Positions 956-49,431 of a DNA stretch of 64,000 nucleotides are shown here, piece by piece (the first letter of the stretch is position 1; each line of letters begins with the position of its first letter). A program made the translations under genes and the position numbers. The notes under the pieces are model-generated. The model searched no databases and was not told where the DNA came from. It worked only from the letters and a program-made list of their open reading frames with translations. Source of the stretch: an uncultured Gammaproteobacteria bacterium (lineage in GTDB: Bacteria; Patescibacteriota; Microgenomatia; PFEM01; DATLAM01). The stretch is taken from contig CAZMIZ010000001.1 in the NCBI GenBank assembly GCA_964566925.1, forward strand, positions 219,968 to 283,967, in the 5' to 3' direction.

Positions 956-1363
956 AAAATGAGTAGCCCAGAGCGACCAGGAACAATTCCGGATGCCCTA
1001 AGGATTCTAAGGAAACAGCAAAGAGGAGTAGGGAAAAAAGGATCGAGGACTCATGAAGAGACCTATTTAGATCGGGCGGCAAAATTAAAGGCTTTAGAGC
1101 TGGGCCCTTGCCGAACATGCCCGGTCCTGATCATTGGCTTGAAAGGAGAGGGAAGATTTGTAGAAGTAAGCCTAAGATGTAAGGGTGGCTTATCCCCTTT
1201 AGACCTGCACCGGCCCTACGTGAGTAGACTAGGAGAGATACCCGAGTGTGATTTTTTGACTTTTTTAAATGAGAGTGCTAAAGCTAGAGTTCCAGAGGAA
1301 AACTTGATATAATAAAGAGGCTTTAACAATCCGCGGTAGCTCAATGGTAGAGCGACCGGCTGT

Positions 1364-1910
1364 AGCACTTTGACAGTGGATTTCGTAAAATAAAGGTATG
1401 GCAGATAAGCGCAGATATAAAGACAGAGCTGGATATTTGATTAAAGCGGTAGCAAAGCGCCGTAAGAGACTCAAAGAAAAAGCTGTCGATTATAAAGGTG
1501 GAAAATGTAGTTTTTGCGGTTATGATAGAGTGATTGACGCTTTAGAGTTTCATCATCTCGGCGCGGGTAAAAAAGATTTTGGCTTGTCTCAAAGAGGATT
1601 AACTCGTTCTTGGAAAAGGATAAAAGAAGAGCTTAATAAGTGCATTTTAGTATGCGCTAATTGCCATAGAGAAATCCACGCAGGAAAATTGCAGCCTCCG
1701 AAGGAAACTTCGGAGTGAAAACCGGGTGAATTCAGGGAAGCCTGAGGGGAAATTATAAACCGTGGTAATCCTGAGCCAAGCCCGCGAACATTTGGGTTCG
1801 GGGAAGGTGCAGAGACTAGGTGATTACACCCATGAGCGCCCGGCGCCTAAAGGCTCGTTAGTCTAAGGCGATGAGATAGTCCACGCCTTAATGAAAATTA
1901 AGGGTTAAGT
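1364..1910 (+). mobile_element. Group I intron inserted in the tRNA anticodon loop (between nt 35 and 36 if Asn reading is right)
   Basis: Intron-core-like elements seen directly: CCTGAGGGGAAA...GCCAAGCCCGCGAA (P4-P6/Q-like), GCAGAGACTAG (R/P7-like) and GATGAGATAGTCC (S/P7'-like) at ~1750-1880; intron ends in G before the 3' exon; 5' exon ends in U. Confidence 0.75.
1398..1718 (+). CDS. HNH homing endonuclease encoded inside the group I intron
   Basis: 106-aa basic protein with CxxC ... HH ... N ... CxxCH pattern (CSFCGY ... EFHHL ... CANCHREIH), typical HNH nuclease; located wholly inside intron. Confidence 0.75.
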   Translation: MADKRRYKDRAGYLIKAVAKRRKRLKEKAVDYKGGKCSFCGYDRVIDALEFHHLGAGKKDFGLSQRGLTRSWKRIKEELNKCILVCANCHREIHAGKLQPPKETSE

Positions 1911-1945
1911 GTAACCGGTTGGTTGCTGGTTCGAGTCCAGCCCGC

Positions 1946-1970
1946 GGAGCCAGTTGGAACTTATTATACC
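1946..1970 (+). repeat. Direct repeat copy 1 (tRNA 3' end plus 18 nt downstream), attL-like
   Basis: GGAGCCAGTTGGAACTTATTATACC; 23/25 identical to 4492-4516. Confidence 0.6.
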
Positions 1971-38919: not shown

Positions 38920-39462
38920 ATGAAAAAGCTATTGGCAGCTTTAATTTTAATTGGTTTGGGAGTGGCGGGGAGGACTGTTTTCCATCTTGCTCCCAACGTG
39001 GAGATGGTTACCTTAGCCTCGTTTTTGGCCGCCACCTATTTAGGGCGGAAATATGCCCTTTTGGTTCCTTTTGTAATCATGGTGATTACCGATACCTTGA
39101 TCGGGAACACCCACATTTTTATTTTTACCTGGTCGGCTTGGTTGATGATTGGGCTTTCCGGTTTGATTTTAAGAAAAACAAGCGGTCTTAAACTAATCGG
39201 TGCTGCTGCCGGAATGGGAATTTTAACTTCTTTATTTTTTTATCTTTACACCAATTTTGGCGTTTGGATTCTTGATTCTTGGGGAATGTATGACCGAAGC
39301 CTGACGGGATTAATTAATTGTTACGTCATGGGATTGCCTTTTTTGAAAGTCAATCTTTTGGGTAATTTAATTTTTGTTCCCGCCGGCTTTTCTGTAGCCG
39401 AATTGCTCTTTCGAAAAGAAAAGATCTTTAGTTTAGCGAAAGTTAAACAGTTGACATTTTGA
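38920..39462 (+). CDS. Membrane protein, ECF-transporter S-component-like
   Basis: 180 aa, 5-6 TM. Confidence 0.45.
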   Translation: MKKLLAALILIGLGVAGRTVFHLAPNVEMVTLASFLAATYLGRKYALLVPFVIMVITDTLIGNTHIFIFTWSAWLMIGLSGLILRKTSGLKLIGAAAGMGILTSLFFYLYTNFGVWILDSWGMYDRSLTGLINCYVMGLPFLKVNLLGNLIFVPAGFSVAELLFRKEKIFSLAKVKQLTF

Positions 39463-39469
39463 AAATTAG

Positions 39470-39564
39470 CTCTAAGCACAGGAAACACCGGTAAAAGCCG
39501 GGGCTGTGCCGCAACTGTAACCCCGCCCCACTTGAGGCGGGGAAGCCAGAACACTGGCTTAGAG
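39470..39564 (+). ncRNA. Unassigned structured RNA element
   Basis: P1 CUCUAAGC/GCUUAGAG encloses hairpins CCGG-uaaaag-CCGG, CCCCGCC-ccacuugag-GGCGGGG and GCCAG-aaca-CUGGC. Confidence 0.3.
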
Positions 39565-39608
39565 AAAGTTATTCGTCCTCTCGAGCAAGGGGAGAAGGCT
39601 AGCGATGA

Positions 39609-47860: not shown

Positions 47861-47932
47861 GGGCCTGTAGTTCAACGGTAAGAACGGGATTCTTATAAAG
47901 TCCAAACGAAGGTTCGACTCCTTCCAGGCCCA
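47861..47932 (+). tRNA. tRNA-Ile (anticodon UAU), no encoded CCA
   Basis: GGGCCTG-TA-GTTC-AACGGTAA-GAAC-G-GGATT-CTTATAA-AGTCC-AAAC-GAAGG-TTCGACT-CCTTC-CAGGCCC-A. Confidence 0.8.
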
Positions 47933-47935
47933 CTA

Positions 47936-49284: not shown

Positions 49285-49357
49285 GCGGGGTAGTGTACGG
49301 TAGCACGTGAGGCTCATAATCTCACAGACCAGGTTCAACTCCTGGCCCCGCAACCAG
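49285..49357 (+). tRNA. tRNA with CAU anticodon (Met/fMet/Ile2 ambiguous), A1xA72 mismatch, encoded CCA
   Basis: anticodon arm TGAGG-CTCATAA-TCTCA; T-arm CCAGG-TTCAACT-CCTGG. Confidence 0.8.
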
Positions 49358-49431
49358 GCAGGGTAGCTCAGTTGGTTAGAGCATCGGATTCATAAACCGA
49401 AGGTCGTGGGTTCGACTCCCACCCCTGCTAC
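49358..49431 (+). tRNA. tRNA with CAU anticodon (Met/fMet/Ile2 ambiguous), no CCA
   Basis: GGCAGGG-TA-GCTC-AGTTGGTTA-GAGC-A-TCGGA-TTCATAA-ACCGA-AGGTC-GTGGG-TTCGACT-CCCAC-CCCTGCT-A. Confidence 0.8.

Follow-up and report, generated by a model that had tools for sequence, protein, structure and literature searches.

The classes of intron-split bacterial tRNAs were extended from 4 to 21 by Williams (2020; bioRxiv 10.1101/2020.01.27.920355), who also catalogued introns at position 35/36 of tRNA-Asn, a class that was named 'Asn.4Ug' by Nakagawa et al. (PMC13011429). The latter authors (bioRxiv 2025; mSystems 2026, PMC13011429) assigned the tRNA-Asn 35/36 introns of Patescibacteria to subgroup IA, whereas 81% of bacterial tRNA introns belong to IC. 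Their survey of 95 complete genomes contained four tRNA-Asn introns with HNH endonucleases, and the split tRNA-Asn genes were found to be miscalled as tRNA-Thr. For the ORF-less intron of GCA_016700035.1, precise and guanosine-dependent self-splicing at 35/36 was demonstrated in vitro, and a mutant of the terminal G served as control (PMC13011429). As already stated in that study, default tRNA finders miss such a gene or call it tRNA-Thr, so that the genome wrongly appears to be without tRNA-Asn, and estimates of genome completeness are thereby affected.

In this study, we analysed a locus of this kind in a 64-kb stretch of DNA; the whole stretch that was analysed is called the window in the following. 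With high confidence, we regard the locus as a Patescibacteria tRNA-Asn(GUU) gene split at 35/36 by a mobile, self-splicing group I intron with an HNH gene in its P1 loop.

The split tRNA-Asn gene and its intron

With introns allowed, ARAGORN reported a tRNA-Asn(gtt) gene at 1330–1952 on the forward strand with a 548-nt intron, i(35,548), behind tRNA position 34/35. The two tRNA halves that had been assigned to one gene by an earlier, sequence-only reading of this DNA were thereby joined, while the spacing of 560 nt given there has to be corrected to 548 nt. The spliced product of 75 nt forms a cloverleaf with the 7-bp acceptor stem and the normal arms that this reading had described, together with a discriminator G and an encoded CCA. 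Exon 1 ends with ...ACCGG CUGU, and exon 2 starts with UAA CCGGU.... The signature U1...A72, G73 and CTGT/...G/TAA was common to all 79 resolved related loci. Default ARAGORN missed the split gene, its output for the window being limited to three other tRNAs; no further tRNA-Asn gene was detected within the 64 kb by this default run.

Upstream of the tRNA, the motif TGaTATAAT is a possible extended −10 promoter element, judged by its sequence. It was absent from the output of a consensus promoter scan, which requires a −35 hexamer, and the scan for sigma-70 promoters and terminators yielded no convincing candidate on either side of the tRNA. No repeat of the 3′ end of the tRNA, and hence no indication of an att site, was found in the window, and the search for a second copy of the intron or of the HNH gene within the window was likewise negative.

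A scan with the covariance model RF00028, by which the sequence-only reading had proposed to check its assignment to group I, confirmed this assignment. The match at 1636–1903 scored 88.6 bits (E = 2.8e-21; gathering score 50) and was the sole such match in the window; among related intron-bearing loci, the threshold was reached in 14 of the 17 scanned. The group I intron is inserted between the anticodon nucleotides U35 and U36 of tRNA-Asn(GUU), as had been proposed, and the insertion site is supported by the pairing of the guide sequence and by the covariation of P9.0. P1 is formed by the exon sequence GGCUGU and the guide sequence GCAGCC with five Watson-Crick pairs and a U1363·G1691 wobble. 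GCAGC is conserved without exception in the aligned introns (44 of 44), and P2 follows directly 3′ of the guide in nearly all loci. The same order, i.e. guide sequence, P2 hairpin with a GNRA-type loop, UGAAAA and P3, is present in the validated intron of GCA_016700035.1.

The guide sequence is found 330 nt downstream of the 5′ splice site with a 327-nt loop in between, and this position places the HNH gene in the P1 loop. The arrangement was confirmed by a close relative with an intron free of the endonuclease gene (L086), in which the similarity to the window ends after the 5′ exon and restarts at window position 1691. P10 is weak, since the nucleotides that precede the guide sequence can form one or two pairs with exon 2 at most. 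Regarding the 3′ boundary, the intron had been placed at 1364–1910; the terminal G and P9.0 set its end to 1911. Because the P9.0 pairs covary, the terminal G is fixed at this position, and the tRNA is therefore Asn and not Thr. All features of the locus are listed in Table 1.

Table 1. Features of the split tRNA-Asn locus, with positions in the window and the evidence on which they rest.
Feature	Position	Strand	Evidence or remark
Possible extended −10 promoter element TGaTATAAT	1305–1313	+	Read from the sequence; the tRNA starts 16 nt further downstream
tRNA-Asn exon 1 (acceptor 5′ strand, D arm, anticodon stem 5′ strand, loop C32 U33 G34 U35)	1330–1363	+	ARAGORN, introns allowed
P1 5′ strand GGCUGU; 5′ splice site 3′ of U1363	1358–1363	+	Complementarity to 1691–1696
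Group I intron, 548 nt	1364–1911	+	RF00028, ARAGORN i(35,548), covariation
L1 (P1 loop, 327 nt), carrying the HNH gene	1364–1690	+	Comparison with L086, which is free of the endonuclease gene
HNH homing-endonuclease ORF, 106 aa	1398–1718	+	ORF list
Internal guide sequence/P1 3′ strand GCAGCC	1691–1696	+	Invariance of GCAGC, position before P2
P2 hairpin UCCGAAG/GAAA loop/CUUCGGA	1697–1714	+	Compensatory changes in 7 of 7 pairs
P3 5′ strand	1722–1727	+	Pairs with 1838–1843; 99% of cells paired, 3 pairs compensatory
P4-P5-P6 domain	1732–1808	+	RNAalifold consensus, pair counts
P4; P5	1732–1737/1769–1774; 1741–1742/1764–1765	+	
P6; P6a	1775–1777/1806–1808; 1781–1783/1801–1803	+	
P7 5′ strand (G1812, bulged A1813, GACUA)	1812–1818	+	Pairs with 1877–1882; 100% of cells paired, almost invariant
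Short insert, 19 nt, at the P7.1/P7.2 site of most relatives	1819–1837	+	Alignment
P3 3′ strand	1838–1843	+	Pair counts
P8 hairpin	1844–1870	+	Basal 5 pairs 94% paired in relatives, 4 compensatory
P7 3′ strand UAGUCC	1877–1882	+	Pair counts
P9.0 (A1883-C1884 × G1909-U1910) around the P9 hairpin (1886–1892/1897–1903, GAAA loop)	1883–1910	+	
Terminal guanosine (omega-G); 3′ splice site 3′ of 1911	1911	+	Invariant G column, P9.0
tRNA-Asn exon 2 (U36 A37 A38, anticodon stem 3′ strand, variable loop, T arm, acceptor 3′ strand)	1912–1952	+	ARAGORN
Discriminator G1949; CCA 1950–1952	Within exon 2	+	

For analysis of the ribozyme core, window positions 1691–1911 were aligned with the validated intron of GCA_016700035.1 and 42 related introns (n = 44). 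The validated intron could be aligned to the window over the entire core, and 35 columns of the alignment were invariant. RNAalifold recovered P2, P3, P4, P5, P6 and P9, with compensatory changes in 26 of the 34 predicted pairs. Its consensus was without the P7 pseudoknot, P8 and P9.0, and these were therefore counted in an explicit structure comprising P2 to P9, the P7 pseudoknot and P9.0. In this structure, 95.2% of the cells were paired compared to 33–46% with slid partners, 32 of 47 pairs showed compensatory changes, and the observed values were reached in none of 500 shuffles. Every helix of the explicit structure pairs perfectly in the window. Both pairs of P9.0 covary among the aligned introns (AC/GU, AU/AU, AA/UU, AG/CU, GC/GC and others). 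The blocks that had been quoted as core-like in the sequence-only reading correspond to J6/7-P7 (1809–1819), J8/7-P7′ (1870–1882) and the P5/P6 region.

In the window, P5 is short and the P7.1/P7.2 region is reduced compared to most relatives. At the site of the 19-nt insert, the window offers merely a possible GUG/CAC mini-hairpin, while most relatives have a covarying P7.1 hairpin. In these relatives, the hairpin, located between P7 and P3′, fits the published IA classification.

The HNH reading frame and its distribution

The 106-aa ORF with a CxxC/HH/CxxCH pattern, which had been noticed in the letters of the sequence, was retrieved with these properties and belongs to the HNH family. An HMM search had been suggested as a check of this point, and its outcome was divided: the window protein alone scored 19.5 bits against Pfam HNH (PF01844) and stayed below the cut-off of 21.4, but 19 of 24 close relatives matched the same family at E ≤ 0.01 (best value 2.1e-6). 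In the CxxC...HH...CxxCH...H pattern, the residues C37, C40, H52, H53, C86, N88, C89, H90 and H94 are invariant in all 24 sequences, and they are found among 27 invariant columns of the protein alignment, which include all Cys/His metal and catalytic positions. With the profile of the family, alignments were obtained to McrA (6ghc) and to a group II intron maturase (6me0), in the latter case to its HNH domain, whereas matches of the window protein alone to the PDB were insignificant; its comparison with NCBIfam yielded nothing useful. With regard to the beta-beta-alpha-metal fold of HNH nucleases, the AlphaFold model (pLDDT 88) has a strand-strand-helix arrangement. The top matches in a Foldseek search against the PDB were all HNH nucleases (Cap5, Gme HNH, Cas9 HNH and T4 endonuclease VII), all of them at E ≥ 0.08 and thus none at E ≤ 0.001.

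Over its full length, the protein is 60–65% identical to the HNH ORFs of GCA_001029735.1, GCA_016699425.1 and GCA_000503835.1, which are located in published tRNA-Asn introns. Compared to its nearest relative (92% amino-acid identity), dN/dS was 0.10, which indicates that the HNH gene is under purifying selection. The stop codon UGA (1716–1718) is located in J2/3, and the final nine codons (...LQPPKETSE) overlap the guide sequence and P2. This overlap accounts for the LQPP/LQLP tail that is conserved in the protein family, and also explains why the ORFs of some relatives run on into P3/P4. The region upstream of the ORF in the window has neither a well-spaced Shine-Dalgarno sequence nor the TGnTAYAMT motif that was found upstream of the ORFs of many relatives.

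In the protein collection, the relatives of the HNH protein fall into 1721 clusters; species-representative genomes contain at least 449 confirmed loci that encode such a relative. The 80 best of these at least 449 loci were surveyed. The HNH ORF was located inside a split tRNA-Asn gene in 72 of the 80 (introns of 511–689 nt) and was free-standing directly upstream of a tRNA-Asn gene in seven. Six of the tRNA-Asn genes beside these seven free-standing copies contained an ORF-less intron and one was intron-less. At the remaining locus (L051) the HNH gene was present and no tRNA was found. In many loci, the HNH cassette has its own −10-like element.

The RpoD encoded adjacent to the locus is 83–90% identical to proteins named Patescibacteria, Shapirobacteria and Pacebacteria, and these source names suggest that the host lies in Patescibacteria. 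Among close relatives (RpoD 88–92% identical), we found an intron with HNH gene (L082, L083), an ORF-less intron of 227 nt (L086) and a tRNA-Asn without intron (L085), as would be predicted from a homing cycle with gain, endonuclease loss and intron loss.

The statement in the sequence-only reading that tRNA introns of this kind are rare is outdated, since tRNA-Asn introns at 35/36 are contained in bioRxiv 10.1101/2020.01.27.920355 and those of Patescibacteria, with HNH genes and self-splicing in vitro, in PMC13011429. Also the presumed rarity of introns bearing an HNH gene does not agree with the numbers of clusters and loci given above. What goes beyond the literature concerns the family: free-standing HNH copies occur beside tRNA-Asn, and HNH-bearing introns occur in draft genomes at a much higher frequency than the four cases from complete genomes suggest. 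Other additions are modest, namely the HNH ORF in the P1 loop overlapping the guide, and the presence of all three homing-cycle states among the close relatives of the host of the window locus.

Proposed splicing and homing, and alternative readings

By analogy to the homologous ORF-less intron, for which self-splicing in vitro is known, we infer the following mechanism for the window locus. In the precursor RNA, P1 would arise from pairing of exon and guide sequence, the U·G wobble being located at the cleavage site, the core helices P2 to P9 would fold, and a free guanosine would attack 3′ of U1363. Afterwards, G1911, placed by P9.0, would replace the guanosine and the exons would be joined, resulting in the 75-nt tRNA with anticodon GUU. 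The HNH protein may nick or cut intron-less tRNA-Asn genes near the anticodon loop, and repair would then copy in the intron together with its gene. Judged by family membership, purifying selection and distribution among relatives, spreading of the intron by homing is the most likely function of the HNH protein.

Two other readings concern the tRNA identity and the position of the guide. The host gene could be a tRNA-Thr(UGU) with the intron at 33/34, both splice sites then being located 2 nt upstream and the intron covering 1362–1909. The tRNA-Thr(tgt) junction is equally foldable and is accepted by ARAGORN, many homologous loci are called Thr by this program, and published tools made the same call (PMC13011429, Table 1). 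However, the guide GCAGCC matches the exon ...GGCUGU ending with U1363 (U35), not with U1361 (U33), the covariation of P9.0 places the terminal G at 1911 and not 2 nt upstream, the tRNA body has U1-A72 and G73 as in all Asn loci, and the sequenced spliced product of the homologue corresponds to excision at 35/36 (PMC13011429). Almost no weight is thus left for tRNA-Thr. For the split tRNA-Asn gene, the sequence-only reading had assumed an atypical, local P1, in which CUGU (1360–1363) pairs with ACAG (1373–1376) and an unusual U:A pair is formed at the splice site. A complementarity of 4–5 bp is indeed present in the window and in a 90%-identical relative (L083), but ACAG is without conservation in other relatives, and a given 4-mer is expected within approximately 35 nt in about one of seven cases according to our own estimate, made without a shuffle test. 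An automated search for the guide just 3′ of the 5′ splice site yielded inconsistent short matches without conservation among relatives. For the local pairing, the guide had been sought just 3′ of the 5′ splice site, but the P1 loop contains the HNH gene. With the canonical U·G guide at 1691–1696, invariant in all 44 introns and matching the validated intron in its location, a local P1 has a very slim chance of being correct.

The remaining alternatives accept the canonical P1 of a split tRNA-Asn and question the activity of its parts. The locus might be a decaying relic, with an inefficient intron or a pseudogene tRNA, while another tRNA-Asn elsewhere in the genome does the work. The stretch examined comprises 64 kb of the genome, and the reduced P5 and P7.1/P7.2 of the window could be taken as signs of decay. 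Against this, the window keeps every invariant core position of the family, its helices pair perfectly, the tRNA cloverleaf is intact, the window contains no other tRNA-Asn gene, and the split gene is usually the sole copy in published complete genomes (PMC13011429); we therefore consider a relic to be improbable. A larger share of doubt belongs to the possibility that the intron splices and the HNH ORF no longer encodes an active homing endonuclease, the protein being inactive or having another role, e.g. as an aid to RNA folding. The protein is small (106 aa) and has no recognisable separate DNA-binding domain, translation signals are weak in the window, and limited mobility of tRNA introns was inferred in the published study (PMC13011429). 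The low dN/dS and the 27 invariant columns with all Cys/His metal and catalytic positions argue for a functional protein, as do the location of the family inside or adjoining tRNA-Asn genes in two arrangements (79 of the 80 best loci) and the variable presence of intron and endonuclease gene among close relatives. On balance, loss of the endonuclease function is unlikely, and an active homing endonuclease remains our preferred reading of the ORF.

The free-standing and the intron-borne HNH copies may also be read together. As a tentative idea, to which we would give less than an even chance, they could capture, in nature and on a wide scale, the transition of an endonuclease aimed at the insertion site from the free-standing to the intron-borne state, by 'collaborative homing' and subsequent invasion of the intron. 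If true, the mobility of tRNA introns in Patescibacteria would have been greatly underestimated in the published survey of complete genomes. Also, the overlap of the final codons of the intron-borne ORF with the guide sequence and P2 would then make translation and splicing mutually exclusive for each transcript.

Relation to known intron systems

I-HmuI, I-TwoI and I-BasI are small HNH enzymes encoded inside phage group I introns, which promote homing and typically nick one strand. Their ORFs are located in loops other than P1, and their host genes and target sites are different. A close relationship in sequence was not detected, and no phage intron endonuclease was among the sequence matches of the family profile to solved structures. 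As in the window, the ORF of I-PpoI from the nuclear rRNA intron of Physarum is located in the P1 loop and precedes the ribozyme core; I-PpoI is a His-Cys box enzyme of a eukaryotic intron and not an HNH protein with CxxC zinc ligands.

The introns of tRNA-fMet (I-Ssp6803I) and tRNA-Leu(UAA) resemble the window element as self-splicing group I introns in the anticodon loop of a bacterial tRNA, and the cyanobacterial tRNA-fMet intron also carries a homing endonuclease, I-Ssp6803I. They differ in their position, which is 33/34 in tRNA-fMet and 34/35 in tRNA-Leu (PMC13011429) but 35/36 in the window. In addition, the endonuclease of the tRNA-fMet intron is of the PD-(D/E)XK type (PMC13011429), whereas the ORF in the window is of the HNH type.

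The tRNA-Asn(GUU) 35/36 introns of Patescibacteria (PMC13011429) share with the window element the host gene, the insertion site and, as far as indicated by the RpoD homologues, the phylum. The core is alignable end to end, the HNH ORF belongs to the same family, and the same miscall as Thr is made by ARAGORN. Nothing essential differs; the window copy originates from a draft metagenome-assembled genome, outside the 95 complete genomes of that study, and has a shorter P7.1/P7.2 region than most relatives. The window element matches the published class in every testable feature, and since this class is already known, the copy is one more instance of it.

Presence of intron and endonuclease around the tRNA-Asn gene

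Among close relatives of the window organism, whose RpoD is 88-92% identical to its own, the presence of the intron and of the endonuclease varies in or near the rpoD neighbourhood, with states from an HNH-bearing intron to an uninterrupted gene (see table); in L084, no tRNA-Asn gene was found within 2.5 kb of rpoD. Such presence and absence would be expected from a homing cycle. Members of the same HNH gene family also occur as free-standing genes at seven loci, each upstream of a tRNA-Asn gene at a distance of 7-55 nt or, in L067, overlapping it. The adjoining tRNA-Asn gene carries a short ORF-less intron at position 35/36 in six of these loci. The LQPP tail is absent from the free-standing copies; in intron-borne copies it is encoded by the guide sequence (3′ strand of P1).

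Integration of islands at the tRNA-Asn gene is suggested by a serine recombinase (509 aa; Resolvase/Recombinase/Zn_ribbon_recom) located directly 3′ of the gene in two relatives. In the window, small ORFs follow the gene, including a weak PIN-like ORF (2297-2785), and a search of the window for a repeat of the tRNA-Asn 3′ end found none. Further RNA features of the window are a cobalamin riboswitch match (39457-39576, +) barely above the Rfam gathering score (34.1 vs 31.5 bits), a tRNA with anticodon TAT assigned to Ile by ARAGORN (47861-47933, +) and, after it, two adjacent CAT-anticodon tRNAs (49285-49352 and 49357-49431, +), of which one is only 68 nt long and scores 51 bits.

Features at related loci (L numbers) in other genomes
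Feature	Locus	Position	Strand	Remark
Free-standing HNH, tRNA-Asn with short ORF-less 35/36 intron	L045	1501-2160		
Same	L067	1224-1807		overlapping
Same	L068	1501-2092		
Same	L071	1501-2143		
Same	L073	1501-2093		
Same	L074	1501-2118		
Free-standing HNH, intron-less tRNA-Asn	L078	1501-1940		
Serine recombinase	L082	1244-2773	-	
Serine recombinase	L086	4984-6089	-	
Intron with HNH	L082, L083			
ORF-less intron	L086	4697-4998		227 nt
Intron-less tRNA-Asn	L085	3618-3691		

Putative expression signals upstream of the HNH gene

In 26 of 81 loci (e.g. L004, L021, L034, L036, L048, L056, L060 and L065), TGnTAYAMT, a motif resembling an extended -10 element, has its 3′ end 6-10 nt 5′ of the HNH ATG; 1.4% of random 40-mers contain the motif. 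This suggests that the HNH gene is transcribed from a promoter of its own and that its mRNA is near-leaderless. At this place the window has just TAAAAT (1386-1391), 6 nt 5′ of the ATG. Loci with record titles Omnitrophota or Planctomycetia have a ribosome-binding site, GAAAGGAGG, instead of the motif.

Divergent introns and possible taxonomic spread

An intron sub-lineage differs in the P3/J3-4 region (...GGGATAACGGTGAAG...; L015, L019, L031, L033, L066, L067, L068, L073 and L075). The members tested, L067, L068 and L073, scored below the gathering score of RF00028, the Rfam group I intron model, and the sub-lineage would therefore escape standard scans.

HNH-bearing tRNA-Asn introns are also present on contigs titled, by record title only, Aerophobetes, Omnitrophota, Elusimicrobia, Limisphaerales and Planctomycetia (L005, L024, L025, L026, L030, L047, L077 and L081); in L005, 23S and 5S rRNA genes precede the tRNA-Asn gene. 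In the published survey (Nakagawa et al., PMC13011429), Patescibacteria are the sole group with HNH-bearing 35/36 IA introns.
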